Source: Macrostomum hystrix
Lineage: Eukaryota; Animalia; Platyhelminthes
Assembly (NCBI GenBank): GCA_950097015.1
Contig: CATNEN010000039.1
Span: 13,578,001-13,642,000 of the forward strand
Direction: 5' to 3'
DNA: 64,000 nt
Shown: in pieces, positions 8,991 to 62,550 of the stretch
Layout of the letters: every line of letters begins with the position of its first letter
Numbering within the stretch: position 1 is the first letter of the stretch
The notes under the pieces: generated by a model
The model's input: only the letters and a program-made list of their open reading frames with translations
Database searches by the model: none
What the model was told of the DNA's origin: nothing
Position numbers and translations under genes: made by a program

Positions 8991-9480
8991 TAGATTGTCG
9001 CCGAAGTTGGCTTTGATGACTAGTTAATTTTCGAAAAAGTCACCGACTTTTACCAAAAAATGTATAATCGATATTCTAATTTTCAAATTTTCAGATGTTA
9101 GAAATGTTTAATTTTCAAACGAAGCTTGTCATTTTAGAAAGCGTTCATAAAAGCAATTAATCTTTTGAAAGCTTCCCCCAAGCTTATAAAGTTCGCAAAC
9201 ACAATCGGTGAGGCATAGATGTTTGGTGCCTCTAATCTAACCAGTCACTGCTAGTTTGCCAAGCCTTGTTCAGGGGCGCCCTTCCTGATTGGCTTGCAAC
9301 TGATCCCGTAGACAGGTAGACAGGTAGAGGCAATATTTAAATATTTACAGAGGGAATTTATTAACAAGGTTTCCGAGTTTTAACTAATTGCTTTATTATC
9401 TGGAATCTACTATCTAGTCTGAAAACAATAGAGCTGTTCCAGAATAGCCTTCTAAATCAAAGAAAGAAATCAATTTCACC

Positions 9481-12550: not shown

Positions 12551-12772
12551 CTACTTGCCCAAAATCCGAAATACAACTCGTGCCACGTTGCCCCACCTGA
12601 TCTTCTTCTCCAGCATCAAGGCCTTGGCTTCGGCCTTCTCCGGCTCGTCCAGATCCGAAAGGGTCTCCAGGGCCCGCAGAGTCTCCGCGTCCTCCTCCGA
12701 CATCTCCTGGCTGGGCCTGGCGACTGCCAGAGCTGCGCAGAGCAGGAGTCCGAGAGCGAGCTGCCACTTCAT
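12551..12772 (-). CDS. Prepropeptide of a C-terminally amidated cationic amphipathic peptide (antimicrobial/toxin- or neuropeptide-like), 73 aa, single exon
   Basis: MKWQLALGLLLCAALAVA signal peptide, acidic propiece RPSQEMSEEDAETLRALETLSDLDEPEKAEAKALMLE, KK, mature IRWGNVARVVFRIL, then GK-stop amidation signal. GC3-rich codons and an upstream TATA. Confidence 0.8.
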   Translation of the reverse strand: MKWQLALGLLLCAALAVARPSQEMSEEDAETLRALETLSDLDEPEKAEAKALMLEKKIRWGNVARVVFRILGK

Positions 12773-12859
12773 GTTCGTGCTGCTGCTGCTGTTGCTCGAT
12801 GAAGTAGATTGTAGAAGCTGAGAGCTTGGCTTGAGGTCCACCAGCACTCAGCGGTCTGG

Positions 12860-22600: not shown

Positions 22601-22944
22601 GATCCTATTTGAGTAGCCATTCTCTCAGATCCTATTTGAGTAGCCATTCTCTCAGATCCTATTTGAGTAGCCATTCTCTCAGATCCTATTTGAGTAGCCA
22701 TCCTCTCAGATCCTATTTGAGTAGCCATCCTCTCAGATCCTATTTGAGTAGCCATCCTCTCAGATCCTATTTGAGTAGCCATTCTCTCAGATCCTATTTG
22801 AGTAGCCATCCTCTCAGATCCTATTTGAGTAGCCATTCTCTCAGATCCTATTTGAGTAGCCATCCTCTCAGATCCTATTTGATTAGCCATCCTCTCAGAT
22901 CCTATTTGAGTAGCCGTCCTCTCAGATCCTATTTGAGTAGCCAT
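13644..22944 (+). repeat. Homogeneous 27-bp minisatellite (ATTTGAGTAGCCAT(C/T)CTCTCAGATCCT)n, ~344 units
   Basis: Seen directly. One 2-bp deletion at ~20645. Higher-order duplications of 837 and 2538 bp. Confidence 0.98.
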
Positions 22945-24185
22945 AATTCTCTTTGATCCTCATTTTGAGTAGCCATTCTCTCTGATCCTCATTTTGAGTA
23001 GCCATCTTCTCAGATTTTTTGAGTAGGCCTAGCCATTATCTGTGATCCTCATTTTGAGTAGCCATCCTCTCAGATCCCCATATTGAGAAGCCAGCCTCTT
23101 AGATCCCCATTTTGAGTAGCCATCTTCTCCGATTTTTTGAGTAGCCATTCTCTTTGATCCTCATTTTGAGTAGCCATCTTCTCAGATTTTTTGAGTAGGC
23201 CTAGCCATTATCTGTGATCCTCATTTTGAGTAGCCATCCTCTCAGATCCCCATATTGAGAAGCCAGCCTCTTAGATCCCCATTTTGAGCTACCACTACCA
23301 TCCTCTCAGATCCTCATTTTGAGCTACCACTACCATCCTCTCAGATCCCCATTTTGAGCTACCATCCTCTCAAATCCTCATTTTGAGCTACCACTACCAT
23401 CCTCTCAGATCCCCATTTTCAGCTACCATCCTCTCAGATCCCCATTTTGAGTAGCCATCTTCTCCGATTTTTTGAGAGGCCATTCTCTTTGATCCTCATT
23501 TTGAGAGGCCATTCTCTCTGATCCTCATTTTGAGTAGCCATCTTCTCATATTTTTTAGCAGGCCTAGCCATTATCTGTAATCCTCATTTTGAGTAGCCGT
23601 CCTCTCAGATCCCATTTTGAGCTACCACTACCATCCTCTCAGATCCTTATTTTGAGCTTCCATCCTCTCAGATCCTCATTTTGAGCTACCATCCTCTCAG
23701 ATCCCCATTTGAGCTACCATCCTCTCAGATCCTCATTTTGAGCTACCATCCTCCCAGATCCCCATTTTGAGCTACCATCCTCTCAGATCCTCATTTGAGC
23801 TACCATCCTCTCAGATCCTCATTTGAGCTACCATCCTCTCAGATCCTCATTTGAGCTACCATCCTCTCAGATCCTCATTTGAGCTACCATCCTCTCAGAT
23901 CCTCATTTTGAGCTACCACTACCATCCTCTCAGATCCCCATTTTGAGCTACCATCCTCTCAGATCCTCATTTTGAGCTACCATCCTCTCAGATCCTCATT
24001 TTGAGCTACCACTACCATACTCTCAGATCCCCATTTTGAGCTACCATCCTCTCAGATCCCCATATTGAGAAGCCATCCTCTCAGATCCTCATTTTGAGCT
24101 ACCATCCTCACAGATCCCCATATTGAGAAGCCATCCTCTCAGATCCCCATATTGAGTAGGTAGCAATCCTCTTAGATCCCCATCT
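22945..24185 (+). repeat. Diverged 27-34-bp variant array of the same satellite family (GAGCTACCATCCTCTCAGATCCTCATTTT)
   Basis: Abrupt switch to heterogeneous units that share CCATCCTCTCAGATCC. Confidence 0.9.
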
Positions 24186-24318
24186 CGAGTCCGTCTCCTC
24201 AATATATGTTACGTTTACGAATTCGTTGGAAGTCAAGTAATATTTTTTCTCCTTTGTTTGGGAACAAATCACAGTAAAGGGCCGCTTAGATGGGGCTAGC
24301 ACAGTTCCTAAGCCACAG

Positions 24319-25000
24319 CCTGGAGTGATTCGTGTGCCAGCTCAGCAGCTGCAGCAGCTGGAGCAGCAGCAGAAGGAGCAGCAGCAATTGCAGCAGCAGA
24401 GAATTCTAGTCAGTCATCGCCAGCGCGGCAATCCAGTACTGCGCTCCATTCGCTCGGTGCCCTGGGAATTCGCCGAGTCGGCCGACCCGGCCGATTTTAT
24501 ACTCGGCCGCACCGCCTGCTGCCTGTTCCTATCCGTGCGCTATCATTGTCTCCATCCTGACTATGTGCACCAACGCCTGCGCCTGCTGGGACCGCGCGAA
24601 TTCGACTTGCGTATTCTTCTACTGTTAGTAGACACGCAGGAGTATACAGACGCTGTGCGTGAATTGAACCGCATCTGCCTAATGGCCGGCTCTACGCTAA
24701 TCCTTGCCTGGAGCAACGACGAGGCGGGCCGCTATTTGGAGAGCTTCAAATCCCTGGAGAAGAAGCCGGCCGACTCGCTGATGGAACGATCGGCCGACGA
24801 TTGGCCTGGCCAACTTCGCGACGTCCTTGGCTGCATTTTGCGGCGTCAGCCGGTCTGACGCTGCCTGCCTGGCCGCCAACTTCGGCACCTTCGAAGCGAT
24901 GATTGGAGCTAGCAGCGCCGAACTGGAACGCTGCCCCGGTCTGGGCCCGAAGAAAGCTGCCAGGCTCACGGCCGTTTTCGGCCAGAACTTTGCCGACTGA
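24319..25000 (+). CDS. ERCC1: DNA excision repair protein ERCC1 (intronless; no in-frame ATG; one +1 T indel at 24836-24839)
   Basis: ILVSHRQRGNPVLRSIRSVPWEF...DFILGRTACCLFLSVRYHCLHPDY...LILAWSNDEAGRYLESFK...KPADSLME. After the indel the HhH2 domain continues VSRSDAACLAANFGTFEAMIGASSAELERCPGLGPKKAARL, with TGA at 24998-25000. The 5' boundary is uncertain (candidate AG acceptors at 24274, 24312, 24318). Confidence 0.9.
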
Positions 25001-25174
25001 TTCACCCGTGACAAAATGTTTTTTTCGATACATATCGGCAGTTTTTTAACAAAGCATTTTCGTGCATAAAATTGTAGAAATATACTTTCTAATTAGTGGC
25101 ACTTTCGTAACTTTATCATCGCACAAAAACTGTGGTCTTCTTATTTGGTTTAACTAATTAAATATATGCCTCTT

Positions 25175-25340
25175 AGGTAGCCTAGCTAGAGGTCAGGGCG
25201 TCCGACTCACGAATTGAAGATCGGGGGTTCGATTCCCGACATCAATAAAACAATTTGTGTCCATTTAGCAAGATACCCAACTCTGTATTGCTTCAGTTCA
25301 CCCAGCTATTAAATAGGTAGCAGCATCAGTTGGTGTAATC
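25175..25340 (+). mobile_element. SINE family 1 copy (tRNA head + core)
   Basis: A/B boxes (TAGCCTAG...GGGTTCGATTCCC) followed by TTTGTGTCCATTTAGCAAGATACCCAACTC...TTGCTTCAGTTCACCCAGCT. Confidence 0.7.
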
Positions 25341-25674
25341 AATTAAGTAGTCATATAAGTGATGCACTTTTAAACGAGCGTGTTCTACTAAAATTGCTTT
25401 CTTACTTGATAGTGTTTCGTTTCTCCATTAAATCAATGCAATAATATGGGCTTTGCCCATAAACTAACTAGCTGTATTCTCAAGCTCAACAGGCTGCAAT
25501 TCTGACCTAATTGGCGCAGGTGTAATTATTTGGTCGGAATATCAATGTAGCAAATGCTAATATTAAAGAGAAAGTGTTTTCTGACAAAACATTCGCCTAA
25601 ATTTCAGAACTGCCAGTCCATTGTAAAGTACAATTAAACTAGGGCAGATTAGCAGTTTAACACAACTTGCAATA

Positions 25675-25923
25675 ATGACGTCACAGTGCAAACGAACCGC
25701 AAAAGCAAGACACAACTCCGCTTCTATAGTTGCTAAGCGACAATGTCAAAATCAGAGTCATTCGTTTGCGGCTTCTCCAGTTGGTCGATCGAATATTGTC
25801 CGCCTATATGAATCAGGTTTGATTACACAAGTTGTGGCCATCGACTGCGAATTTGTTGGCACGGGTCCCAGAGGCTGCGTCAGCGCCCTCGGCCGCGCCA
25901 GTGTGCTCAACGAACGAGGAGAT
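25675..25923 (+). CDS. REXO4/ISG20-like DEDDh exonuclease, 5' exon only
   Basis: ExoI motif [31 protein letters not shown] followed by a phase-0 GTGAGC donor at 25924. No downstream exonuclease exons are present. Confidence 0.75.
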
Positions 25924-25999
25924 GTGAGCAGTTGCTTTTGTTTTTTTTTTTTTGTAGCTAATTTTTTGGTTGTTTAAGTAGCTTTTCAGATCCTAGTTA

Positions 26000-26405
26000 T
26001 GACTCTGAAAATCCCTATTTTGAGTAGCTATACTCACAAATCCCCAATTTGAGTAGCAATCCTCTCAGATCCCCTATTTGAGTAGCAATCCTCTCAGATC
26101 CCCTATTTAGAGTAGCAATCCTCTCAGATCCCCTATTTGAGTAGCAATCCTCTCAGATCCCCTATTTGAGTAGCAATCCTCTCAGATCCCTTATTTGAGT
26201 AGCCAACCTCTCAGATCCCCAATTTGAGTAGCAATCCTCTCAGATCCCATATTTCAGTAGGCATCCTCTCAGATTCCCTATTTGAGTAGCCAACCTCTCA
26301 AATCCCGTATTTCAGTGGGCATCCTCTCAGATCCCCAATTTGAGTAGCCAACCTCTCAAATCCCGTATTTCAGTAGGCATCCTCTCAGATCCCCTATTTG
26401 AGCTA
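26000..26405 (+). repeat. 28-bp minisatellite of the same family as the 13.6-24.2 kb array (intronic position)
   Basis: (TTTGAGTAGCAATCCTCTCAGATCCCCTA)-like units. Confidence 0.9.
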
Positions 26406-26491
26406 TTGGGTATGTCTGAGAACTTTAAAAGCTTGTTTGCGAAGTTAGGGATACTTTTGTAGAGGCTTGTGAAGATTTTGGAGACTTTAAG

Positions 26492-28419
26492 AAGCTTTTG
26501 AGCTACCTGCTAGGACTCGGCTGGGTCAATCATTTCCACTACGTCCTAGTCAACGCATGCAAACCCAAATTCTTTGCCGATGGCACCCTGCTCAGATTTG
26601 TGGACAGAAGCAGCGGCAAACTCAGATTGGGCACCCACACCGGACCGCTGCAGTCTGGGGTGGTCTACTCGGGAGGTGAATAGTAGATTGGGGAGTAGAT
26701 TGGAGAGTAGATTGGAGAGTAGATTGGAGAGTAGATTGGCAAATAGATCGGGGAGTAGATTGGAGAGTAGTAGATTGGAGAGTAGATTGGCAAGTAGATC
26801 GGGGAGTAGATTGGAGAGTAGATTGGAGAGTAGATTGGAGAGTAGATTGGAGAGTAGATTGGCGAGTAGATTGGAGAGTAGATTGGCAAATAGATCGGGA
26901 GTAGAATGGGGAGTAGATTGGCAAGTAGATTGGGGAGTAGATTGGAGAGTAGATTGGAGAGTAGATTGGCAAGTAGATCGGGAGTAGAATGGGAGTAGAT
27001 TGGCAAGTAGATTGGCAGTAGAATGGGGAGTAGATTGGCAAGTAGATTGGGACTAGAATGGGGAGTAGATTAGAGACAAGAAGTAGATTAAAAAATGCTA
27101 GTACAATTGTGATAAGCAGCCCAGCCAATCACATTCTTCCAACGCAGGCTCCTGCGCGGTGTTCTCCCGCCTGATTGGCTGTCGCGGCAAGGACGTCCTG
27201 TACGCCGGCGATCACATCTTCGGTGACATAATCAAGTCCAAGAAAGTGGGCTGGCGGACTCTGCTTATCGTGCCTGAGTTGGCAAACGAGCTGTTCGTAT
27301 GGAAGCAGGACCAGCAGCTGTTTGAGAGGCTGCAACTGCTGGAGGCTTCACTGGGTCGCATGTACCTGCACTGCACCCTGGCTGGCGGAGAGACCAACCC
27401 GGCCCCGCAACCAGACCATGTTCACCAGTTGCGAGCCGATATTCGCTCGGTTGTACGCGAAATGGACACCGCCTACGGCTTTCTGGGTTCGCTGTTTCGC
27501 TCAGGCGGCCGGCTGACGAGCTTCGCGTACCAGCTGGAGCGATACGCTGATCTCTATGCTCAGCGGGTGACAAATCTGAGACATTATCCTAGCAACTATA
27601 TGTTCCGCTCGCCTCAGAGGCTCATGCCGCACGAGTCCACTGTGACGCGGGCACGCGGGCTGGAGGAGTCGCCGGCGCTGTCGGCGACGGTGCAGCCGGC
27701 GGTGTCGCCGAATCGACGGCGTCGCCCGTGGAAGCCATAGCTGCCACAGCCAGACTGGCTTTGCGAGCCAATTCCGTTGTGGAACGGGGCCGGCAGCGTG
27801 AGTGCCTGCTAGGGTAGACTGGGAACGGATTGGGTAGACTGGGAAGGGACTGGGTAGACTGGGAAGGGACTGGGTAGACTGGGAAGGGACTGGGTAGACT
27901 GGGAAGGGACTGGGTAGACTGGGAAGGTACAGGGTAGACTGGGAAGGTATAGGGTAGACTGGGAAGGTATAGGGTAGACTGGGAAGGTATAGGGTAGACT
28001 GGGAAGGTATAGGGTAGACTGGGAAGGTATAGGGTAGACTGGGAAGGTATAGGGTAGACTGGGAAGGTATAGGGTAGACTGGGAAGGTATAGGGTAGACT
28101 GGGAAGGTATAGGGTAGACTGGGAAGGTATTGGGTAGACTGGGAAGGTATTGGGTAGACTGGGAACACAGAATGGTCAGTGCAAAGGAGTTTGTTCTAAT
28201 ATTGCAGGTCGCATGAGCGCTCCGTCAGTAGACGAGGTGCACTTGGCTGCCTCACTGGTTGCGGATGGTAAGCTCAAAGCTATTATTACTCGTTATTGTT
28301 TTTAAACATTATCACAAATTTGTTTCATGATTTCAGATGACCAAAACCACTTTGTTCCACAATTGACTGAGCAACCCGGCGATGATGAAGATGAAGATGA
28401 TTCGGATGAACTAAATTGA
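26492..28419 (+). CDS. NT5C2: Cytosolic purine 5'-nucleotidase (cN-II), 3' half; exons 26492-26675, 27148-27797, 28208-28267, 28337-28419
   Basis: KPKFFADGTLLRFVD...GKLRLGTHTGPLQSGVVYSGGS, HAD motif [34 protein letters not shown]...RYADLY...MPHESTV, and an acidic tail DDEDEDDSDELN*. Splice phases are consistent, but one indel is needed near 27660-27710. The 5' half is absent. Confidence 0.88.
26690..27075 (+). repeat. 12-bp minisatellite (GAGTAGATTGGA)n filling an NT5C2 intron
   Basis: Seen directly between the donor at 26676 and the acceptor at 27147. Confidence 0.95.
27811..28164 (+). repeat. 20-bp minisatellite (GGGTAGACTGGGAAGGTATA)n filling an NT5C2 intron
   Basis: Seen directly between the donor at 27798 and the acceptor at 28207. 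Confidence 0.95.
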
Positions 28420-29498: not shown

Positions 29499-30461
29499 CC
29501 AAAATTGATTTTACTGACTAGTTTTAGCTTTGAGCCCTCAGCTATTTTCAGGGGTGCATCTTCCTCCTTTCGACTATTGCAATAAGCAGTTTTTCTCTCT
29601 TTTCTTATCAATTTTGTCGTTTTAAGAGTAGAAAAACGATGGGGGTTTCAAATACCTACAATTTTCTTTTTCTTCATCTCCCAAAATATTTAGCCAATAG
29701 CCATGAAAATCCAGAAATCTCGTCCGTGTGTCTGGTGGCAAAAAAACAATTATTTTCTGCTTGGGAGCTATTGTGAAGAAGTCAGTGGGTATTCCCGTGT
29801 TCTTTCTACTGTTAAATAAAAGCATCAGGATCTCCATACTATATTGTTGTGCCTTTTAAATTCAATAATTTTCAAATACCCAACATGAAATACGAGTACA
29901 TCCTCAATTTAAATTTGTATACATACTTTGGAACATATTCTTTGTTATTACAGCCTGTTAGCCTACAGATGTATACATTACTCCTCCTTTTCTCAGTGTG
30001 GCTACGGAAAAATTCTTTCTTTACCTCGATGGCTTCGCCTCGGCCTAAGAAGCGCGTCCTCGGCCTTTCTCTGCCATAGAAACCAAAAGAACAGACAAAG
30101 ATTATATAAGTAAGCTAGAAAGCTTCTAATAGTACAACACAAAAGTTCATCTCAGAAAAGTCGTGCACGAAAAAAGCAAAGTAGAGCTGAAATTTGCCAT
30201 AGACAAAAGGCGGGCACCCCTGTGTCAGCCAGCGCTGCCATAGACCGAGCCGGCTCGCACCTGCATTCTCTGCAGCATATTGAAGGGGCAGCGGCCCGAA
30301 ACGAAGAATCAAATCCAACAACTGACAACACTCGACTAAGCATTCTGGCCGATTCTACTCAGCCGTTGCAAACCTGATCAAGAATTGACTGCAGTTCAAC
30401 TGCCACCTGCCAGCTAATCGACCAAATCTAACTGGGCTATTCGGAATCGAAGCTGGCAATC

Positions 30462-31268
30462 ATGACGACTATGAAGCTGGTTATTGTTGGCGTGTTTCTT
30501 GCACTTGGAGGCATTCAGCTGGCTGATTGTATTAAATGTATCTGGTCGAAAAATTGGATAGCAACATTTTCTCATTATAAGTATGATTCAATGAAAAATG
30601 TTGAAACACATTGTCCTCCAGGCACCACCAAGTGTAATGTGGAATATCATCCTAGAAGTACATTTGACCTAGAAGTGGTGAGCGACCGAATGAATTGAAC
30701 TAATTTAATTAGCATATCAATTCGAAATCATAAAGCAACAGTTTGCCCTATAAATTTTGCCCCATGCGGAAACTTTTTTTAGCCACTGACATATGGTTGC
30801 GGCGCCTGTCCCCGTACAAAATATTGCAAAGACTGCACGGGTGAAAACTGCAATAAAGCGAGTGTATTAAACTTGACCAATGATCTAGAACGTGATCTGG
30901 TGCCATGCCTTATAAAGAAAAGATTTACTAGACCTATAGATGGTGAAGCTTTTTGCCGTCAATCAGAAAAGTGTCTTAAATTTGTTCATACAAATCATCA
31001 ATCTCGAGCATACGCAACCATTTTCGGCTGTGAAAATTGGATGAACAGTAATTATGGCAATGTAACCGAATTAGAACACTACGAATGTAGACCAAACGCA
31101 GAAAAAACTGATTGTATCACATTACGAATCCACACTCCGTCTGCAACCACGACTTCTGGGGATGCTTGGCACCCGAATTGGCCGCTCGTAGCCGTACTGC
31201 TGGGCTGCACGAAGCTGATAGCGATTCTGATTGCGCTGTTTATTAAGTTCTGTCTGAAAATGTGCTGA
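30462..31268 (+). CDS. Three-finger (Ly6/uPAR/3FTx-like) two-domain membrane protein, paralog A; exons 30462-30677, 30783-31268
   Basis: Signal peptide MKLVIVGVFLALGGIQLADC. Eight-Cys domain IKC...HCP..TKC...YGCGACP...CKDCTGENCN, a second 6-Cys domain, and a C-terminal hydrophobic segment. Phase-0 105-bp GT-AG intron. Confidence 0.8.
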
Positions 31269-31440
31269 AAATATCAAAACGCTAAAAGTCTCCACTCAAT
31301 AACAAAAACTGACAGATTTCCTTTGCAAATCTCAAGCATGCCAGGCTTGTCACATTTTATTACTAAATTATATATATATATATCTGAATTCCGAACTTTT
31401 TTAACACTCCGTGCAAGCTGCACAATGATCAGTTAAACCT

Positions 31441-32137
31441 GGCTTTGTCACATAGGCTGGGAAAATGTCAAACGGGTTGGGGATTTGTCACATAGGTTGG
31501 GAAAATGTCTAACGGGTTGGGGATTTGTCTAACGGTTGGGGATTTGTCTAACGGGCTGGTGATTTGTCTAACGGGTTGGGGATTTGTCTAACGGGTTGGG
31601 GATTTGTCACATAGGTTGGGAAAATGTCAAACGGGTTGGGGATTTGTCACATAGGTTGGGAAAATGTCAAACGGGTTGGGGATTTGTCACATAGGTTGGG
31701 AAAATGTCAAACGGGTTGGGGATTTGTCTAACGGGTTGGGGATTTGTCTAACGGGCTGGTGATTTGTCTAACTGGTTGGTGATTTGTCTAACGGGCTGGT
31801 GATTTGTCTAACTGGCTGGTGATTTGTCTAACTGGTTGGTGATTTGTCTAACTGGTTGGTGATTTGTCTAACTGGTTGGTGATTTGTCTAACTGGTTGGT
31901 GATTTGTCTAACTGGTTGGTGATTTGTCTAACGGGCTGGTGATTTGTCTAACTGGTTGGTGATTTGTCTAACGGGTTGGTGATTTACGTCTAACGGGCTG
32001 GTGATTTGTCTAACTGGTTGGTGATTTGTCTAACGGGCTGGTGATTTGTCTAACGGGCTGGTGATTTGTCTAACGGGCTGGTGATTTGTCTAACAGACAG
32101 TTAGAAAATCCCTAGCGCATTAGGAAAAGGCGATACC
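31441..32137 (+). repeat. 20-bp minisatellite (GGTGATTTGTCTAACGGGCT)n inside a MITE-like element, copy A (~33 units)
   Basis: Tandem units followed by an inverted related arm GTTAGAAAATCCCTAGCGCATTAGGAAAAGGC at ~32100-32132. Confidence 0.85.
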
Positions 32138-32424
32138 AATTAATTATAATAACTAAATCAACAGAATTATTGGCCAAGAACGCTCACACTTTGTCTGCAA
32201 AGTGTCAATTTGTAGACACTTTGTTAATTTCTTAAATTATCACTGACAGTTTTAAACCAAAACGAAAAGAGCCTGGTGCAAATTTTTGAATTTACGCGCT
32301 CCGTTTAGACAAGTAAGACACGTTTTTTCGTTAACAACATTTTATTTTTATTTTCAAACTTTACGAAACTTGGCAAATAGACTTCAGAAAGTGGACTGCA
32401 TTTTGGACCTTGCCTTCTGATCTG

Positions 32425-33750
32425 TTCTCCCCTTTCGTATCTCCCCTCTTAGTTCTCCACTTTCATATCTCCCCTCTCAGTTCTCCCCTCTCAGATCTCC
32501 CCTCTCTAATTTCCCCTCTCAGATCTCCCCTCTCAGTTCTCCTATCTCAGATCTCCCCTCTCAGTTCTACTATCTAATATCTCCCCTCTCAGATCTCCTA
32601 TCTCAGATTTCCCCTCTCAGATCTCCCCTCTCAGTTTTACTATCTAATATCTCCCCTCTCAGATCTCCTATCTCAGATTTCCCCTCTCAGATCTCCCCTC
32701 TCAGTTCTACTATCTGATATCTCCCCTCTCAGATCTCCCCTCTAAGATCTCCTATCTCAGTTCTCCCCTCTCAGATCTCCCCTCTCTAATTTCCCCTCTC
32801 AGATCTCCCCTCTCAGATCTCCCCTCTCAGATCTCCCCTCTCAGATCTCCCCTCTCAGATCTCCCCTCTCAGATCTCCTGTTTCAGATCTCCCCTCTCAG
32901 TTCTCCTATCTCAGATCTCCCCTCTCAGATCTCCCCTCTCAGGTCTCCTGTTTCAGATCTCCCCTCTCAGATCTCCTGTTTCAGATCTCCCCTCTAAGAT
33001 CTCCTATCTCAGATTTCCCCTCTCAGATCTCCCCTCTCAGTTCTACTATCTAACATCTCCCCTCTCTGATCTCCCCTCTCAGTTCTACTATCTAATATCT
33101 CCCCTCTCAGATCTCCCCTCTCAGTTCTCCTATCTCAGATCTCCCCTCTCAGATCTCCCCTCTCAGATCTCCTGTTTCAGATCTCCCCTCTAAGATCTCC
33201 TATCTCAGATTTCCCCTCTCAGATCTCCCCTCTCAGTTCTACTATCTAACATCTCCCCTCTCAGATCTCCCCTCTCAGTTTTCCTATCTCAGATCTCCCC
33301 TCTCAGATCTCCCCTCTCAGTTCTCCTATCTCAGATCTCCCCTCTCAGATCTCCCCTCTCAGATCTCCTGTTTCAGATCTCCCCTCTAAGATCTCCTATC
33401 TCAGATTTCCCCTCTCAGATCTCCCCTCTCAGTTCTACTATCTAACATCTCCCCTCTCAGATCTCCCCTCTCAGTTTTCCTCTCTCAGATCTCCCCTCTC
33501 AGATCTCCCCTCTCAGTTCTACTATCTAACATCTCCCCTCTCAGATCTCCCCTCTCAGTTCTACTATCTAACATCTCCCCTCTCAGATCTCCCCTCTCAG
33601 TTCTCCTATCTCAGATCTCCCCTCTCAGATCTCCCCTCTCAGATCTACTATCTAACATCTCCCCTCTCAGATCTCCCCTCTCAGTTCTCCTATCTCAGAT
33701 ATCCCCTCTCAGATCATCCCTCTCAGTTCCCCGATCTCAGATCTCCCCTG
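32425..33750 (+). repeat. 14-bp minisatellite (AGATCTCCCCTCTC)n, copy A
   Basis: Seen directly, with variant units. Confidence 0.95.
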
Positions 33751-34197
33751 ACCCACATCAGAAAAATGCGGTAGGTCTGCAAAAAATGCGGTAGGTCTGC
33801 AAAAAATGCGGTAGGTCGGCTGTAGCTTTTTTTCTATATTGCTTTTTTTATTTGACTGAAAAGCAATAAAATATATTAGTCAAGGAAAGAAATTGTTTTT
33901 ATTGTCATCTACAAAATAATAGTGGAAATGCAGGGCTTTCTCAACCCACCGGGTTCTCAGCTAAAATTCAATTCAATACTTTTCAATTAATAAATAACTA
34001 AACGAATGGAAACTTAGTATATAATGAAATGCAACATATCAGTAAATTTTTTCGGAAAGCAGCTTAGAAAGCTTTACTCAGAACTCTTAAGAAACAGGAA
34101 GTGTACCGTTTTTCTGCACCAAATGTGGAATTAGAGAATTTCAGCGGTTTACTGAAAACATGACCTAAGTCTTTGTACAACTTTCGCAGCTTCATGC

Positions 34198-34680
34198 AGT
34201 ACAGCTGTGACCTGAGTCACTGAAGGATCATGGAGTACAGCTGTGACCTGAGTCACTGAAGGATCATAAGGATAGCTGTGACCTGAGTCACTGAAGGATC
34301 ATGAAGTACAGCTGTGACCTGAGTCACTGAAGGATCATAAAGGATAGCTGTGACCTGAGTCACTGAAGGATCTTGAAGTACAGCTGTGACCTGAGTCACT
34401 GAAGGATCATAAAGGATAGCTGTGACCTGAGTCAGTGAAGGATCATAAAGGATAGCTGTGACCTGAGTCACTGAAGGATCATGGAGTACAGCTGTGACCT
34501 GAGTCACTGAAGGATCATGGAGTACAGCTGTGGCCTGAGTCTCTGAAGGATCATGGAGTACAGCTGTGACCTGAGTCACTGAAGGATCATAAAGGATAGC
34601 TGTGACCTGAGTCACTGAAGGATCATGGAGTACAGCTGTGGCCTGAGTCACTGAAGGATCTTGAAGTACAGCTGAAGTAC
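34198..34680 (+). repeat. 36-bp minisatellite (GTACAGCTGTGACCTGAGTCACTGAAGGATCATGGA)n
   Basis: About 13 units seen directly. Confidence 0.95.
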
Positions 34681-34689
34681 AGAATTCCT

Positions 34690-34945
34690 TTTACCACGAC
34701 GACCCCTAACACGACCAGTGCACAACCAAACTACTACCCAATGCCTACCAGGAAGATTTAAAGTGTCTGTATTCGCCACAAAAAGTATGCTTTTCCATCT
34801 TGAGGTGAATTCCTTATACTCTGGATCGAATCTTGCGGATAGACACCCAAAAAACAGCATTGTGCAAACCGACACATAGTTTTGTAATGACTGATAGCAG
34901 AAATCTGTTTGTGACACCACGCCACCAGATGTTCGGATTCACTTC
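34690..34945 (-). pseudogene. Polinton/adintovirus adenain-like cysteine protease relic
   Basis: CCFLGVYPQDSI followed, after a frameshift, by FVANTDTLNLPGRHWVVVWL (F-x-G-V-(F/Y)-P-x-D and N-T-D-x4-P-G-x-H-W motifs). Lies directly downstream of an MCP C-terminus and is truncated by the 36-bp array. Confidence 0.75.
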
Positions 34946-35085
34946 CATGCTGTACCAGGCACAACGTCGCGAAGTTCGGTGATTTGTAGCTGTTTGTCAA
35001 AAAGAACTCCGAACACTACGTTGTACACATCGGGTGTTGCCTGTGCGAAGCGCAACTCTAGCTTTACTTTGCCTTCCTTATACCG
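34939..35085 (-). pseudogene. Polinton/adintovirus major capsid protein C-terminus relic (copy A)
   Basis: RYKEGKVKLELRFAQATPDVYNVVFGVLFDKQLQITELRDVVPGTAWK*. Shares ~43 bp nearly identical with 42276-42319. Confidence 0.7.
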
Positions 35086-35269
35086 GGTGGTCCATGCGTT
35101 TAAGGGCAACCTTAAAAATAGAAGAAAGCAAAGCCAGCGGTAGCTAGAGCATAATAGTTTTGGTCATAGACAAAATAGTATCTATATAGTCTGTAGCTGC
35201 CGCGAAAATTTTCGGCAACTTCGCATTAGCCATGAATCGCGCTAAACGTTTGATGGTGGTAGACCAGGT

Positions 35270-36155
35270 GGGTGTTTCATAGAAGTGACAAGTTACAAGT
35301 GACTAGCGACAAGTCGACAAGCTACAAGTTACAAGTGCCAGAGATTTTTGTTTCATAGGTCGATTTGTAAGTCTCACGACAAGCTACAAGCTGCCTGAGT
35401 AGTGAACGAAAATGTCTATGTCCAAAACCGGGGTCGGTCGTAGTGAGAAAGAACGAATAATCCATAGTCGACCCTATGCATTGGACGATGCCACTGCACT
35501 GACAAAGAAAAATAATGCCACTCACGGTCGAGAGCAAGAATTCTCTGCTGCGTCTGATAAGCGAAAGAAAGGCTGATCTATTTGGCGAATTTTCCGCAAC
35601 AATTACGAAGGAAAAACGCGTGGCTGCTTGGAAAGAAGTTGTGACGACGTGCAAAAGTGATTACGGTTTCGACCCATGTCCTGGAAAAGACTACACCTAC
35701 GTAAGGGACACCTTGTGGCCAAACATCGCGCGGGGTATAAGCCCAGCACAGATAGCAGAGAACCTCAATGTTGCAAGGTCGTTTGTTTACGCCGTCAAGA
35801 GCGACATTGAAGAAGTTGGAGCTGCTGCGGCAGTTGAAAGGAAACCCCACAACTCTCCAAGACCAATCAGGTCAGAGGAGCTTCGCGAAACTGTGGCTGA
35901 GAGGATCAAAGCTGACCCTCGAGTGTCCATCAGGGAGCTTGCCAGGTCAAGTGGTGTTTCAAGGAGCACGATGCAGAGGCTGGTACACGAAGACCTTGAC
36001 CTCAGTTCGTATAAGATTAAAGAATCGGTGCCGTCAATTAATCAACCGACTGAAAGGACCGGACGCCGGGAAGGTTCTGATCTTCAGCGATGAGAAGTTC
36101 TGGACCGTCGACAGGGCCTTCAATCGACAGAATGACCGATATCTGGCACCGTCAG
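35270..36155 (+). mobile_element. Chimeric DNA-transposon relic: Harbinger-type left end and Myb/SANT-like ORF fused in frame to a Tc1/mariner (maT/DD37D-like) transposase fragment
   Basis: ORF 35515-36093 begins LLRLISERKADLFGEFSATITKEKRVAAWKEV...YVRDTLWPNI (Myb/SANT-like). It continues with HTHs ISPAQIAENLNVARSFVY and PRVSIRELARSSGVSRSTMQRLVHEDL. A shifted frame gives VLIFSDEKFWTVDRAFNRQNDRY. ACAAG subterminal repeats at 35287-35338. Confidence 0.7.
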
Positions 36156-36760
36156 TATTTGTTGTAAAAAAACAAATAAAATTGACGACAAATAATTTTT
36201 AACAAAAATACTTTCATATTGTTAGTAAAATGATTTTACGCAAATTTGAAGAAACTTTATTTAAGTTTAGTTTGAGATTTTGTCTTGTGTATATAGCTTG
36301 GTCTGCTATTTTAACTTTGCCAAGCTCAAAGCTCAAATATGGGCCCATGGGAAACATACATTCAATGCATGTAAAGTGCAATACTTCTTTGTTAGAGAGA
36401 AACTCCAATAAGCTAGAAAGATTTCTAATAGTACAACACAAAAGTTCATCTCAGAAAAGTCGTGCACGAAAAAAGCAAAGTAGAGCTGAAATTTGCCATA
36501 GACAAAAGGCGGGCACCCCTGTGTCAGCCAGCGCTGCCTTAGACCGAGCCGGCTCGCACCTGCATTCTCTGCAGCATATTGAAGGGGCAGCGGCCCGAAA
36601 CGAAGAATCAAATCCAACAACTGACAACACTCGACTAAGCATTCTGGCCGATTCTACTCAGCCGTTGCAAACCTGATCAAGAATTGACTGCAGTTCAACT
36701 GCCACCTGCCAGCTAATCGACCAAATCTAACTGGGCTATTCGGAATCGAAGCTGGCAATC

Positions 36761-37578
36761 ATGACGACTATGAAGCTGGTTATTGTTGGCGTGTTTCTTG
36801 CACTTGGAGGCATTCAGCTGGCTGATTGTATTAAATGTATCTGGTCGGGCCATTTTGTGCCATTTTTTTCTAAGTATAAGAGTGATTCAATGAATGGTGT
36901 TGACACACATTGTCCAACCATCACCAAGTGTAAAGTGGATTATGATGATCCTGGATTTGGATTTGGTGAAGTGGTGAGTGACCGAATGAATTAAACTAAT
37001 TTAATTAGCATATCAATTCGAAATCATAAAGCAACAGTTTGCCCTATAAATTTTGCCCTATGCGGAAACTTTTTTAGGGACTGACATATGGTTGCGGCGC
37101 CTGTCCCCGTACAAAATATTGCAAAGACTGCACGGGTGATTACTGCAATAAAGCGAGTGTATTAAACTTGATCAATGATCTAGAACGTGAACTGGTACCA
37201 TGCCTTCGCTACACAAAATTGTCTAAAGAATCGAAACCTCCACCTCCAGTTGAAACTTTTTGCCGTCCGTTAGATAAGTGCTTTAAATTTTTTACTAGAA
37301 AGCCTCTTGCTCAACACATTCAAGCAAACGCAACCATTATCGGCTGTGAAAGTTCGATGAACTTTTCATATAGCGATGTAACCGGATTTGAACGCTACGA
37401 ATGTAGACCAAACGCAGAAAAAACTGATTGTATCAAATTACATCACATTACGAATGCTTGGCACCCTAATTGGCTGTTAGTAGCCGTACTGCTGGGTTGC
37501 ACGATGCTGATCGCGATGCTGATTGCGCTGCTGATTGCGCTGTTTATTAGGCGTTATTCTTTTCTTGCTCTTTTATGA
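36761..37578 (+). CDS. Three-finger (Ly6/uPAR/3FTx-like) two-domain membrane protein, paralog B; exons 36761-36973, 37078-37578
   Basis: Identical signal peptide and Cys scaffold to paralog A (YGCGACPRTKYCKDCTGDYCN) with divergent loops. 104-bp phase-0 intron. TM segment WLLVAVLLGCTMLIAMLIALLIALFI. Confidence 0.8.
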
Positions 37579-37812
37579 TTTCCTTTTGAATCTTCTTTTG
37601 ATTTTTTGATGTATTGAAAGTTCTGTCTGAAAAAGTGCTGAAAAAATCAAAGCGCTAAAAGTCTCCACTCAATATCAAAAACGGACCGATTTCCGTTGCA
37701 AATCTTAAGCATGCCAGGCTTGTCAAATTTTATGTATATATATATATATCTCTGAATTCCGAAACATTTTAACAATCTGTGCAAGCTGCACAATGATCAG
37801 TTAAACCTGCAG

Positions 37813-40800
37813 GCTTTGTCACATAGGTTGGGAAAATGTCTAACGGGTTGGTGATTTGTCTAACGGGCTGGTGATTTGTCTAACTGGTTGGTGATTTGTC
37901 TAACTGGTTGGTGATTTGTCTAACGGGCTGGTGATTTGTCTAACGGGCTGGTGATTTGTCTAACGGGCTGGTGATTTGTCTAACTGGTTGGTGATTTGTC
38001 TAACGGGCTGGTGATTTGTCTAACGGGCTGGTGATTTGTCTAACTGGTTGGTGATTTGTCTAACGGGCTGGTGATTTGTCTAACTGGTTGGTGATTTGTC
38101 TAACTGGTTGGTGATTTGTCTAACAAGCTGGTGATTTGTCTAACTGGTTGGTGATTTGTCTAACTGGTTGGTGATTTGTCTAACTGGTTGGTGATTTGTC
38201 TAACTGGTTGGTGATTTGTCTAACTGGTTGGTGATTTGTCTAACTGGTTGGTGATTTGTCTAACTGGTTGGTGATTTGTCTAACGGGCTGGTGATTTGTC
38301 TAACGGGCTGGTGATTTGTCTAACTGGTTGATGTTTTGTCTAACGGGCTGGTGATTTGTCTAACGGGCTGGTGATTTGTCTAACGGGCTGGTGATTTGTC
38401 TAACTGGTTGGTGTTTTGTCTAACGGGCTGGTGATTTGTCTAACTGGTTGGTGATTTGTCTAACTGGTTGGTGATTTGTCTAACTGGTTGGTGATTTGTC
38501 TAACTGGTTGGTGATTTGTCTAACTGGTTGGTGATTTGTCTAACGGGCTGGTGATTTGTCTAACGGGCTGGTGAATTGTCTAACGGGCTGGTGATTTGTC
38601 TAACGGGCTGGTGATTTGTCTAACGGGCTGGTGATTTGTCTAACGGGCTGGTGATTTGTCTAACGGGCTGGTGATTTGTCTAACTGGTTGTTAATTTGTC
38701 TAACGGGTTGGTGATTTGTCTAACTGGTTGGTGATTTGTCTAACTGGTTGGTGATTTGTCTAACGGGCTGGTGAATTGTCTAACGGGCTGGTGAATTGTC
38801 TAACGGGTTGGTGATTTGTCTAACGGGTTGGTGATTTGTCTAACGGGCTGGTGATTTGTCTAACGGGCTGGTGATTTGTCTAACGGGCTGGTGATTTGTC
38901 TAACGGGCTGGTGATTTGTCTAACGGGCTGGTGATTTGTCTAACTGGCTGGTTATTTGTCTAACGGGCTGGTGATTTGTCTAACGGGCTGGTGATTTGTC
39001 TAACGGGTTGGTGATTTGTCTAACGGGCTGGTGATTTGTCTAACTGGTTGGTGATTTGTCTAACGGGCTGGTGAATTGTCTAACGGGCTGGTGAATTGTC
39101 TAACGGGTTGGTGATTTGTCTAACGGGTTGGTGATTTGTCTAACGGGCTGGTGATTTGTCTAACGGGCTGGTGATTTGTCTAACGGGCTGGTGATTTGTC
39201 TAACTGGTTGGTGATTTGTCTAACTGGCTGGTGATTTGTCTAACTGGCTGGTGATTTGTCTAACGGGCTGGTGATTTGTCTAACTGGTTGGTGATTTGTC
39301 TAACTGGTTGGTGATTTGTCTAACGGGCTGGTGATTTGTCTAACGGGCTGGTGATTTGTCTAACTGGTTGTTAATTTGTCTAACGGGTTGGTGATTTGTC
39401 TAACTGGTTGGTGATTTGTCTAACTGGTTGGTGATTTGTCTAACGGGCTGGTGAATTGTCTAACGGGCTGGTGAATTGTCTAACGGGTTGGTGATTTGTC
39501 TAACGGGTTGGTGATTTGTCTAACGGGCTGGTGATTTGTCTAACGGGCTGGTGATTTGTCTAACGGGCTGGTGATTTGTCTAACGGGCTGGTGATTTGTC
39601 TAACGGGTTGGTGATTTGTCTAACGGGCTGGTGATTTGTCTAACGGGCTGGTGATTTGTCTAACGGGCTGGTAATTTGTCTAACGGGCTGGTGATTTGTC
39701 TAACTGGTTGGTGATTTGTCTAACAAGCTGGTGATTTGTCTAACTGGTTGGTGATTTGTCTAACTGGTTGGTGATTTGTCTAACTGGTTGGTGATTTGTC
39801 TAACTGGTTGGTGATTTGTCTAACGGGCTGGTGATTTGTCTAACTGGTTGGTGATTTGTCTAACTGGTTGGTGATTTGTCTAACTGGTTGGTGATTTGTC
39901 TAACTGGTTGGTGATTTGTCTAACTGGTTGGTGATTTGTCTAACTGGTTGGTGTTTTGTGTAACGGGCTGGTGATTTGTCTAACTGGTTGGTGTTTTGTC
40001 TAACGGGCTGGTGATTTGTCTAACGGGCTGGTGATTTGTCTAACTGGTTGGTGTTTTGTCTAACGGGCTGGTGATTTGTCTAACGGGCTGGTGATTTGTC
40101 TAACTGGTTGGTGTTTTGTCTAACGGGCTGGTGATTTGTCTAACTGGTTGGTGATTTGTCTAACTGGTTGGTGATTTGTCTAACTGGTTGGTGATTTGTC
40201 TAACTGGTTGGTGATTTGTCTAACTGGTTGGTGATTTGTCTAACGGGCTGGTGATTCGTCTAACGGGCTGGTGATTTGTCTAACGGGCTGGTGATTTGTC
40301 TAACGGGCTGGTGATTTGTCTAACGGGCTGGTGATTTGTCTAACGGGCTGGTGATTTGTCTAACGGGCTGGTGATTTGTCTAACGGGCTGGTGATTTGTC
40401 TAACTGGTTGTTAATTTGTCTAACGGGTTGGTGATTTGTCTAACTGGTTGGTGATTTGTCTAACTGGTTGGTGATTTGTCTAACGGGCTGGTGAATTGTC
40501 TAACGGGCTGGTGAATTGTCTAACGGGTTGGTGATTTGTCTAACGGGTTGGTGATTTGTCTAACGGGCTGGTGATTTGTCTAACGGGCTGGTGATTTGTC
40601 TAACGGGCTGGTGATTTGTCTAACGGGCTGGTGATTTGTCTAACTGGTTGGTGATTTGTCTAACTGGCTGGTGATTTGTCTAACTGGCTGGTGATTTGTC
40701 TAACGGGCTGGTGATTTGTCTAACTGGTTGGTGATTTGTCTAACGGGCTGGTGAATTGTCTAACGGGCTGGTGAATTGTCTAACGGGTTGGTGATTTGTC

Positions 40801-41589
40801 TAACGGGTTGGTGATTTGTCTAACGGGCTGGTGATTTGTCTAACGGGCTGGTGATTTGTCTAACGGGCTGGTGATTTGTCTAACGGGCTGGTGATTTGTC
40901 TAACGGGCTGGTGATTTGTCTAACTGGTTGGTGATTTGTCTAACTGGCTGGTGATTTGTCTAACTGGCTGGTGATTTGTCTAACGGGCTGGTGATTTGTC
41001 TAACGGGCTGGTGATTTGTCTAACTGGTTGGTGATTTGTCTAACTGGCTGGTGATTTGTCTAACTGGCTGGTGATTTGTCTAACGGGCTGGTGATTTGTC
41101 TAACGGGCTGGTGATTTGTCTAACTGGTTGGTGATTTGTCTAACTGGCTGGTGATTTGTCTAACTGGCTGGTGATTTGTCTAACGGGCTGGTGATTTGTC
41201 TAACGGGCTGGTGATTTGTCTAACTGGTTGGTGATTTGTCTAACTGGCTGGTGATTTGTCTAACGGGCTGGTGATTTGTCTAACGGGCTGGTGATTTGTC
41301 TAACTGGTTGGTGATTTGTCTAACTGGCTGGTGATTTGTCTAACTGGCTGGTGATTTGTCTAACGGGCTGGTGATTTGTCTAACGGGCTGGTGATTTGTC
41401 TAACTGGTTGGTGATTTGTCTAACGGGTTGGTGATTTACGTCTAACGGGCTGGTGATTTGTCTAACGGGCTGGTGATTTGTCTAACGGGCTGGTGATTTG
41501 TCTAACGGGCTGGTAATTTGTCTAACTGGTTGGTAATTTCTCTAACAGACAGTTAGAAAATCCCAAGCGCATTAGGAAAAGGCGATACT
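37813..41589 (+). repeat. 20-bp minisatellite (GGTGATTTGTCTAAC(G/T)GG(C/T)T)n inside a MITE-like element, copy B (~186 units)
   Basis: Same flanks and inverted right arm as copy A, about 6-fold longer. Confidence 0.95.
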
Positions 41590-41879
41590 AATTAATTATA
41601 ATAACCAAATCAACAGCATTATTGGTCAAGAAAGCTCATACTTTGTCTACAAAGTGTCAATTTGTAGACACTTTGTTAATTACTTAAATTATCACTTCAA
41701 TTTTGATCAGTTTCTACCAAAACGAAAAGAGCCTGATGCAAATTTTTGAATTTACGCACTTTGTTTAGACAAGTAGGACTCGTTTTTTTCTTTCACAACT
41801 TATTTTTTTTTGTCAAACTTTACGACAATTGGCAAATAAACTTCAGAAAGTGGACTGAATCTTAGACCTTGCTTTCTGA

Positions 41880-42270
41880 TCTGATCTCCGCTTTCATATC
41901 TTTCCTCTTAGTTCTCCTATCTCAGATCTCCCCTCTCAGATCTCCCCTCTCAGATCTCCCCTCTCAGATCTCCTATCTCAGATCTCCCCTCTCAGATCTC
42001 CTATGTCAGATCTCCCCTCTCAGATCTCCTATCTCAGATCTCCCCTCTCAGATCTCCCCTCTCAGATCTCCCCTCTCAGATCTCCTATCTCAGATCTCGC
42101 CTCTCAGATCTCCCCTCTCAGATCTCCCCTCTCAGATCTCCTATCTCAGATCTCCCCAACCAGATCTCCTATCTCAGATCTCCCCTCTCAGATCTCCCCT
42201 CTCAGATCTTCCATCTCAGATCTCCCCTCTCAGTTCTCCTATCTCATATCTTCCTTCTATCTCATATCTC
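41880..42270 (+). repeat. 14-bp minisatellite (AGATCTCCCCTCTC)n, copy B
   Basis: Seen directly. Confidence 0.95.
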
Positions 42271-42274
42271 AAGA

Positions 42275-43010
42275 CCTCCGAACACTACGTTGTACACTTC
42301 GGGTGTTGCCTGTGCGAATAGAGTTGTAGAGTTGAGCACCTTGTCCGACACCAGGATCGGTTCCCAACGCAAACGCGAAAATTGAGTATCCGCTTCCATA
42401 GTCCTGCATCGCGAATGCAATGTCTCGTCCTTGCAGATACCTGCTGCTGACATTCGCATGTTCGAAATTGAACTGGTTTGTATCCATGCTACCATTGAAA
42501 GCATTGTTCTTCACAAAGGTCAACAGAAGCAGCCTTGTTACTACACTGGGGAATAGATTTTCGTGCGTATGACTTAAGGATCCACGCGGAATAGTAAAGG
42601 TACCCAGACTCAAACTGCGGTGTGGATACAATGCATAGTGACTCCTCAAACCGTACGCATGTGCTCCAATCACACTCGGCGATGGTTGCACAAACCGAAC
42701 TCGTAGCTCCGCTTGAAGAATTTATATGGTATTAATCCTTCAATGATCCGTAGCAGCGACACCTGAACCACTCAAAACAAACTAGCTTTTTGCTGGAAGC
42801 AGCTTCAGCCGTAGAGCATGTAACGCGGCTGTCGAAACAAGTCGAGAAACAGAGGCCCCGAAACCGTGCATTTGTTGCTGTCCGCAATCAGAGCCTTTAC
42901 CGGAGCCTTTACCGGACCAGAATTGTCTGCACCTCCATGCAGTTTTCCACTAGTGTCCTTGTAGAATCCCCACGGAGCCAACGCACTCTGAGCTACGCTT
43001 CCTTATTCTA
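42275..43010 (-). pseudogene. Polinton/adintovirus major capsid protein relic (copy B)
   Basis: Fragmented frames give GFYKDTSGKLHGGADNSG, VSGPLFLDLFRQPRYMLYG, ELRVRFVQPSPSVIGAH...ALYPH...FTIPRG...ENLF...FVKNNAFNGSMDTNQFNFEH, GYSIFAF and FAQATPEVYNVVF. These are collinear with Polinton-type MCP motifs. Confidence 0.8.
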
Positions 43011-62122: not shown

Positions 62123-62550
62123 TCAGGCCCTGGACTGCTGCAACAGACGGTCCAGTTTGTCCTCGATTCTAGCCAGCCGAGATTCCATCTCTCGGCTGCG
62201 ATTCTGCACCGCCGTTAGGCCGGTCATCATGAAGCTCTGGTTGCGGTGCATCTCGGTCAGGCTCACCGAACTGTCAGCCAAGCGTTTCTGATCTCCGCGC
62301 AGCTCCCGGATGCGATGAATCGAGTGCAGCAGGCGTCTCTGGTGCTTCAGCGTCCTGCCAGCGTTGCCAGCCTTCTTGTACTTGTAGGACAGCCAGCCCT
62401 CCTTCAGTATATTCGCTGCGGCGTGCTTGACCTGTTTGTCCAGCTCGATGTCGATGACAAAGTTATGGACGTACTTTTCGGCCCGGGATAGTTCGAGTTT
62501 TCGGGCCAGCACCGCCACTACCAGGGCGGTGACACCGGTGCCGAAGAGGC
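62123..62550 (-). CDS. Small-conductance Ca2+-activated K+ channel (SK/KCNN family), last coding exon
   Basis: S6 and calmodulin-binding domain GLFGTGVTALVVAVLARKLELSRAEKYVHNF...KHAAANILKEGW...HQRRLLHSIH, then a C-terminal coiled coil. CAG acceptor at 62553-62551. Confidence 0.92.

Follow-up and report, generated by a model that had tools for sequence, protein, structure and literature searches.

Tandem genes for predicted membrane-anchored three-finger proteins with variable loops in a Macrostomum flatworm

A tandem gene pair lies in the 64,000-nucleotide stretch of Macrostomum hystrix DNA analyzed here (the window), and its two copies, A (233 amino acids) and B (237 amino acids), each specify a protein with a signal peptide, a pair of cysteine-rich domains, and a hydrophobic anchor at the C-terminus. 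Both are spliced, transcribed members of a multigene family with many loop variants. At a probability of roughly 40%, we read this family as membrane-anchored proteins of two predicted LU (three-finger) domains, whose fingers would form a binding repertoire shaped by an arms race against non-self such as microbes or parasites. To our knowledge, hypervariable three-finger families are secreted vertebrate products, namely snake toxins and the salamander protein PMF, and a free-living flatworm with a two-domain, membrane-anchored counterpart would, if true, be an independent case; the literature search returned no paper on such a family in a free-living flatworm. Since RNAi and in situ work are possible in Macrostomum, which is also a model for sexual conflict, variable recognition of microbes or mates by a flatworm would be directly testable. 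The preliminary description of this DNA proposed a diversifying cell-surface recognition family, of which the expressed, diversifying paralogues stand, a three-finger-like fold ranks first but below significance, and the contrast with the 5' DNA and the intron proves overstated.

Both genes lie on the forward strand. In copy A, the duplicated unit starts with the upstream region and 5' UTR (30111..30461), followed by the coding part of exon 1 (30462..30677), which supplies the signal peptide and the first two fingers of domain 1, a 105-nt GT..AG phase-0 intron that interrupts finger II at its tip (30678..30782), and that of exon 2 (30783..31268), which encodes the constant end of domain 1, a linker, domain 2, a stalk, the hydrophobic anchor (~31188-31244), and the stop. 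Judging by hydropathy, the signal peptide of copy A would comprise residues ~1-23. Because contig cover climbs from ~30290, a good part of the "upstream" DNA is probably 5' UTR. Copy B repeats this order, with an upstream region and 5' UTR (36409..36760), exon 1 (36761..36973), a 104-nt GT..AG phase-0 intron (36974..37077), and exon 2 (37078..37578), whose anchor (~37480-37536) is followed by RR and a short tail. Each gene is trailed by a 3' flank, a 20-bp satellite, and a shared post-satellite stretch, all without assigned strand, at 31244..32423 for A (satellite 31506-32094, shared stretch 32095-32423) and 37617..41882 for B (satellite 37837-41546, ~185 units; shared stretch 41547-41882). 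Within the window, blastn and tblastn detected A and B as the only family copies. It is highly improbable that these are two haplotypes of one gene set in tandem by the assembler: published Macrostomum assemblies are troubled by separately assembled haplotypes, and no contig piece spans both copies, but the homology starts abruptly at 30111 (A) and 36409 (B), with unrelated DNA 5' of each edge, and the contig variants far exceed two alleles. There is no sign of somatic rearrangement, A and B both being complete genes in genomic DNA.

Expression is evident from public transcript-like contigs, which join exactly across the introns of both copies at the predicted GT..AG sites (X1 and X5 for A, X2 for B). 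These three were judged transcript-like from their splice joints, not from an RNA label, and X6, X9, and X12 from exon-to-exon joints together with empty intron bins. A piece of X1 matches copy A at 30988-31107 and a piece of X2 matches copy B at 37202-37415, each with 0 differences, and mismatch-free copy-specific pieces cover 29 (A) and 65 (B) of the columns in which the copies differ. X6 and X12, in which several B-specific loops are without cover, and X13, a single piece, were dropped as evidence. The contigs carry eight more in-frame versions of one loop, the distinct two-sided inserts keeping frame in 8/8 cases (chance 1.5e-4), and hence a multigene family exists. Among coding family variants, 20/21 and 30/36 are non-synonymous as single changes in two listings of the best-supported 40 rows each. 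Summed contig depth over constant segments is 60-519x that of copy-specific pieces, a ratio not taken as copy number or expression level. The paralogues are real and expressed, and the family is diversifying, which bears out this part of the preliminary description.

Divergence between the copies amounts to 0.6% in the 5' flank (2 substitutions and 1 indel over 351 aligned nucleotides), 3% in the intron (3 substitutions and 1 indel), and 8% downstream, where 17/216 sites differ in the 3' flank and 25/324 in the post-satellite stretch; the downstream excess over 2/351 sites upstream gives a Fisher p of ~1e-6. The signal-peptide codons are identical, and 23 of the 43 residues after IKCIWS differ, with one further gap and a single synonymous change among the 19 codons for identical residues. 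All the corresponding counts made earlier, from the upstream DNA to the synonymous changes, hold on recount; the phrase "near-identical non-coding DNA" suits the upstream region and the intron but not the 3' flank or the post-satellite stretch. A 308-nt run on the forward strand (30241..30548 in A, 36540-36847 in B), spanning UTR, signal peptide, and first mature codons, is identical in the two copies and is likely a gene conversion tract. Taken with the 8% divergence downstream, it points to gene conversion, so that the near-identical 5' DNA would be no neutral clock; both 5' flank and intron look homogenized. Their use as such a clock was dropped (0.6% and 3% versus 8%), and setting the loops against them as a rate yardstick had claimed too much; the DNA downstream of copy A provides the neutral yardstick of ~8%. 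Patchy conversion with high loop dS had been named beforehand as what would undo the argument, and it is half true, since conversion is likely but loop dS is 0.12, not high.

With an alignment scored on nucleotides, the ectodomains give dN 0.242 and dS 0.079, the latter in agreement with a flank divergence of 0.081-0.083. Omega is then ~3 against the 8% yardstick (p 0.001-0.004) and 3.45 by maximum likelihood (p 0.004), and the excess of non-synonymous change described earlier is supported under this scoring. With a protein-scored (BLOSUM) alignment, omega is 1.2-1.3 and non-significant; leaving out the gapped loops gives 2.8 (p 0.039). The tests use the two full sequences, A and B. The finger loops are probably under diversifying selection, with statistical support that depends on the alignment. 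It is distinctly unlikely that no adaptive diversification has occurred, the copies being mosaics in which some blocks are old and others were converted recently, with loops that drift under relaxed constraint. Such a mosaic would match the block structure seen in the identical run and the 5'-3' divergence gradient, the reduced genome-wide efficiency of selection reported for hypodermic Macrostomum species, and the BLOSUM alignment, in which differences spread evenly over codon positions (34/32/33) and the models tie (lnL -984.12 for selection, -984.10 for the mosaic). Against it, the nucleotide-scored alignment gives lnL -929.9 for selection versus -934.4 for a two-age neutral mosaic, the variable blocks have pS 0.11 versus pN 0.32, where neutral simulations give pS 0.31 and reach the observed pN/pS in 0/400 runs, and the ratio holds at 2.05-2.85 over four gap settings.

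The ectodomain cysteines, eight plus six, are all kept in both copies, as stated at the outset. Domain 1 has eight, which follow an LU-like order within a 70-residue span (26-95), and ends in CN (Asn after the last Cys) in both copies, and domain 2 has six over 70-77 residues and CI; the motif proposed earlier, C..CP..C..GCG.CP..C..C...CN, hence describes domain 1 but not domain 2. LU domains have an adjacent CC where domain 1 here has C-x2-C. The cited sections define an LU domain by 60-90 residues with 8-10 cysteines in LU spacing, and describe a typical LU gene, not without exceptions, as having one exon for the signal peptide, a pair of exons for each domain, and phase-1 introns (PMC6600238). 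Here, a single phase-0 intron falls in finger II of domain 1, and neither copy has one after the signal peptide or within domain 2. The predicted model of domain 2, of low confidence (pLDDT 56), has six strands; among the Foldseek matches listed, the top 5 and 24/47 in all are LU-fold chains, and VIA places the same chain at rank 1, with 10 LU chains among the 50 matches listed. All these matches are non-significant (E >= 0.59, Z 3.5, rmsd 3.7 over 62 residues), so that the suggested Foldseek check ranks LU chains first without significance, for domain 2 only. A single-sequence model of exon 2 (pLDDT 46.5) was set aside as uninformative, returning generic beta sandwiches (Z <= 4.4) and no LU-fold chain among the 50 matches listed. 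Domain 1 spans the intron, and its three-finger reading comes from cysteine spacing alone; Pfam matched an LU family at E <= 10 in 0/4 exon peptides, scanned singly and thereby splitting domain 1. There is a strong likelihood that both domains take the predicted LU fold.

A C-terminal hydrophobic segment of at least 19 residues is present in both copies (hydropathy peaks 2.7 and 2.9), N-glycosylation sequons vary between them, and the tail of B resembles a membrane helix with RR after it, while in A small residues precede the tail. Surface display through a single membrane helix or a GPI anchor, with no signalling tail, is thus quite probable. An unlikely alternative is a mixture of proteins that are shed or secreted, having been cut loose from the anchor to enter mucus or rhabdites, and that act in defence or in the manner of pheromones. 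To this reading the conserved leader, variable mature region, many isoforms, and secreted three-finger proteins as best fold matches would lend themselves; both copies, however, keep the hydrophobic segment and two domains, unlike the secreted single domains of snake toxins and PMF, and a shared fold shows no function.

Homologue searches were negative: P0002 gave 0/6 candidates at E <= 1, P0004 gave 0 matches at E <= 0.001 among 1.84 billion representatives, alignment of exon 1 against longer proteins gave 0/22 candidates (weak evidence), and PDB sequence searches gave weak unrelated matches only (best E 0.015, to a membrane-helix region). The protein libraries searched include M. lignano proteins.

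In the arms-race reading, the family would grow by tandem duplication, gene conversion would keep promoter, leader, and cysteine framework alike, and the fingers, displayed on the cell surface as a binding repertoire, would change through substitution and in-frame indels under pressure from non-self surfaces such as those of microbes or parasites. The choice of a non-self or defence target is a guess by analogy and is favoured over mating partners; fluke Ly6 proteins include tegumental members, according to the sections cited below. The same family and selection might instead serve reproduction, as sperm-surface, ejaculate, or female-antrum proteins diversified through sexual conflict or through the recognition of mates and self, which seems somewhat unlikely: multi-copy hypervariable membrane families are more commonly defence or allorecognition genes. 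TEX101 and LYPD4 are sperm proteins and Bouncer is an egg protein, and these, the first two with two LU domains and GPI, would be its analogues. TEX101 and LYPD4 are among the multi-LU genes named in the cited sections (PMC6600238), and reproduction-related genes are reported to evolve faster across Macrostomum (PMC8662610). Three fluke Ly6 genes are testis-biased, and no homologue appeared in the searched libraries, M. lignano proteins included. Rather doubtful is a germline-encoded variable recognition library, in which genes for membrane-bound three-finger proteins, numbering from tens into the hundreds, would combine a constant framework with fingers of varying length and be reshuffled by gene conversion into a code for immunity, allorecognition, or sperm compatibility.

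Several known systems resemble this pair in part. In snake three-finger toxins, exons diverge faster than introns. These toxins are the best structural matches of the domain-2 model (non-significant, 15-20% identical), but they are secreted single domains, whereas two domains and an anchor are found here, and nothing here shows toxicity. PMF (Plethodontid modulating factor) shares with the family proposed here the three-finger architecture, many co-expressed isoforms, and positive selection on coding DNA, and its UTRs are ~98% identical versus ~30% amino-acid identity in the cited sections (PMC4029566, PMC6487043); in both PMF and this pair, non-coding DNA is far more alike than protein. PMF is, however, a secreted 7-kDa single domain, in which disulfide pairing can differ though spacing is equal, and, unlike in PMF, the 5' identity here is local to A and B, other family contigs (records 2 and 11) being 11-13% different in the 5' UTR. 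Trematode Ly6/CD59-like proteins (SmCD59/SmLy6, FhLy6, FgLy6) also come from flatworms and, as predicted here, join LU domains to a signal peptide and an anchor, occurring in families of ~20 and in tegument, gut, parenchyma, and testis (PMC3812095, PMC11484910, PMC8763315). They have ten cysteines per domain, as opposed to 8 and 6 here, homologue searches detected no sequence similarity to them, and the cited sections report no hypervariable recent paralogues (PMC3812095, PMC11484910, PMC8763315). uPAR, C4.4A, TEX101, LYPD4, and CD177 are membrane-anchored with LU domains in tandem, the arrangement predicted here (PMC6600238); the domain lacking the 7-8 disulfide is N-terminal in these multi-LU GPI proteins, as described in the cited sections, and would, from cysteine spacing, be domain 2 here, and the single phase-0 intron differs from their exon layout. 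Finally, SpTransformer, FREP, and fester are multigene families that are specific to their lineages and vary in their binding regions, as the present genes would; as far as the sources cover them, their folds differ and their function has been demonstrated, whereas the function of the present genes is a proposal.

Both tandem paralogs consist of two exons, as read from the window sequence. In copy A, exon 1 runs from the ATG at 30462 to 30677 (+), the intron occupies 30678-30782 (+), and exon 2 extends to the stop at 31268 (+), giving a product of 233 aa; the corresponding parts of copy B, which encodes 237 aa, lie at 36761-36973 (+), 36974-37077 (+), and up to 37578 (+). The products start with a hydrophobic signal. 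Domain 1, which has eight Cys and a terminal CN, is joined by a linker of 18 residues to domain 2, which has six; a stalk then leads to a hydrophobic segment at the C-terminus (19-residue Kyte-Doolittle peaks of 2.7 and 2.9), behind which few residues are left in A and B alike. N-glycosylation sequons differ partly in position between the two. A similarity search of the 64-kb window found no further copies.

The surroundings are mixed in content. Between the copies lies a frameshifted Tc1/mariner-like transposase fragment with HTH matches (35503-36202, +), and two ORF fragments without Pfam match, 34648-34938 (-) and 42269-42721 (-), presumably resemble Polinton/Maverick protease and capsid motifs; a 48-nt match connects 35002-35049 and 42271-42318. 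Ordinary genes occupy 24241-27740, 46779-56624, and 62123-62563 (ERCC1, 5'-nucleotidase, a BTB-BACK protein, an SLC6 transporter, and a calmodulin-binding K-channel exon), the ERCC1 exon at 24244-24855 being 79% identical to Macrostomum lignano, with next best matches of 45-58%. This degree of identity most likely places the window in a Macrostomum species different from M. lignano. ORFs with a WSC domain (9456-9914, +; E 6e-15) and a weakly matched PAN domain (10566-10886, +; E 0.07) are also found. The ORF at 12551-12847 (-), whose sole Pfam match has an E of 0.055, encodes a 73-aa precursor with a signal peptide, an acidic pro-region, a dibasic site, and a short cationic amphipathic peptide ending in GK, a layout that we take to resemble that of antimicrobial-peptide precursors. 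Within a 27-bp satellite of ~385 units (13644-24146), frames without stops extend over 2351 and 2349 codons, probably as a by-product of the repeat unit.

Contigs from eight of the 14 listed public sequencing runs, none recorded as RNA, were compared with A and B. Exact joints across the copy A intron are present in contigs of runs X1 and X5, and across the copy B intron in those of X2, while intron bins lack cover in X5, X6, X9, and X12. Mismatch-free pieces are copy-specific: 30988-31107 of A, in X1, spans 29 columns where A and B differ, and 37202-37415 of B, in X2, spans 65. Given these intron-joining contigs and copy-specific pieces, both genes are transcribed. Contigs aligning to the gene number 875 from X1 and 1243 from X2, summed depth not being equivalent to copy number. 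Cover is high on the leader, the GCG-to-linker block, and the last part of domain 2 but drops sharply over the fingers, as expected of many paralogues with a common framework. At the finger-II tip, eight distinct versions, alleles or paralogues that contigs do not separate, occur apart from those of A and B (12 listed rows minus three duplicates and one tail row); by hand count all eight are in frame, giving 67-74 codons ahead of exon 2, with hand-translated examples PTEGEV, PRIEEEEEV, and HPVFADNIGEV. Separately assembled haplotypes are described as a problem in published Macrostomum assemblies (excerpt of PMC10468722). Contigs of X5, X6, and X9 have the UTR and the greater part of the signal peptide in common with the two copies before becoming unlike A or B at 30522-30523 and 36822, and may represent a divergent or chimeric family member with the same leader. 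The same loop inserts occur in X5/X9 and X6/X12, runs whose labels name two organisms (A and B); the variants could be shared by closely related species, or the material could have been mixed or labelled in different ways. The signal-peptide base common to A (30489) and B (36788) is a minority by depth in three of four runs per copy, and X1/X2 exceed X5/X6 in summed depth at this base 58- to 164-fold, for which the contigs give no explanation.

The preliminary description had reported near-identical non-coding DNA beside hypervariable loops, and a recount agrees: 351 nt upstream hold two substitutions and one indel, the intron three substitutions and one indel, and the 43 positions after IKCIWS 23 changed residues and one gap, with one synonymous change among 19 identical-residue codons. 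The duplicated unit extends beyond a 20-bp satellite, and A and B differ at 17 of 216 sites in the 3' flank (JC 0.083; Fisher p 4e-6 relative to the upstream DNA) and 25 of 324 in the post-satellite stretch (JC 0.081; p 1e-6 likewise), the upstream figure being 2 of 351. A 308-nt run across the UTR and signal peptide into the first mature codons is identical, which has a probability of 1e-11 at 7.8% divergence, and the 5' UTR of other family contigs (two contig records) is 11-13% different. Together, these observations suggest that the 5' identity is local to the pair, best read as gene conversion or recent partial duplication. In contrast, plethodontid modulating factor (PMF), a salamander three-finger pheromone, shows family-wide non-coding conservation (excerpts of PMC4029566 and PMC6487043).

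The omega estimate for the ectodomain depends on alignment. The BLOSUM-scored alignment gives a dN/dS of 1.34 (NG86, p 0.19) and an ML omega of 1.2, with a one-age selection model tying with a two-age neutral mosaic; once gapped loops are dropped, omega is 2.8 (p 0.039). When the codon alignment is instead scored by nucleotides alone, dS is 0.079, dN 0.242 (Fisher p 0.001), and ML omega 3.45 (p 0.004), and the selection model stands 4.6 log units above the mosaic at equal parameter number. Its variable blocks have a pS of 0.112 and a pN of 0.318; the ratio, 2.05-2.85 across four gap settings, is attained in 0 of 400 neutral simulations aligned likewise. This alignment is preferred as the one that requires fewer changes and has a dS equal to that of the independent flank; pairwise site models leave room for multi-nucleotide changes or short conversion tracts. 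Among the best-supported coding family variants listed, non-synonymous changes, each taken singly, make up 20 of 21 in one set and 30 of 36 in the other, the latter set including gap-rich distant paralogues.

Pfam scanning of four exon peptides found no Ly6/uPAR (LU) family, three protein searches returned no homologues, and the exon-2 structure model had uninformative fold matches. Domain 2 alone yields a six-strand model (pLDDT 56), for which Foldseek matches lean, below significance, towards the previously proposed three-finger fold: LU chains, recognised by title and chain length as three-finger toxins, TGF-beta-family receptor ectodomains, or GPIHBP1, make up the top five and 24 of the 47 matches listed, none better than E 0.59. 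VIA ranks Foldseek's top chain first (Z 3.5, rmsd 3.7, 62 residues), level with unrelated rows, and 10 of its 50 matches listed are LU chains. Such an excess among matches to a predicted structure is enrichment, not proof. Judged from cysteine spacing, domain 1 appears to fit LU better than domain 2, and LU membership is likely. The exon layout is unlike that of the typical LU gene (excerpt of PMC6600238).

Tandem duplication would supply gene copies, and conversion would keep promoter, leader, and cysteine core alike, so that members could be co-expressed and fold alike. Selection and in-frame indels would vary five of six fingers, the exception being finger III of domain 1, which is both short and constant. 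The product probably sits at the cell surface without a signalling tail and would therefore act as a ligand, coat, decoy, or co-receptor. Multi-copy variable membrane families provide an analogy for a defence or non-self partner. Because of this analogy and that with tegumental fluke Ly6, microbes, parasites, or non-self are ranked first as the possible partner, at a probability of roughly 40%. Fluke Ly6 proteins include tegumental members (excerpt of PMC11484910), and Ly6/CD59-like proteins are known from trematodes (excerpts of PMC3812095 and PMC8763315). A reproductive partner is ranked second, as less likely, with fast-evolving reproduction-related genes across Macrostomum (excerpt of PMC8662610) in its favour. 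The family is real and expressed and apparently undescribed, literature searches, with most subscription journals outside their scope, having found no paper on it. It probably works in the manner of known hypervariable three-finger families, from which anchor, domain number, and phylum set it apart.
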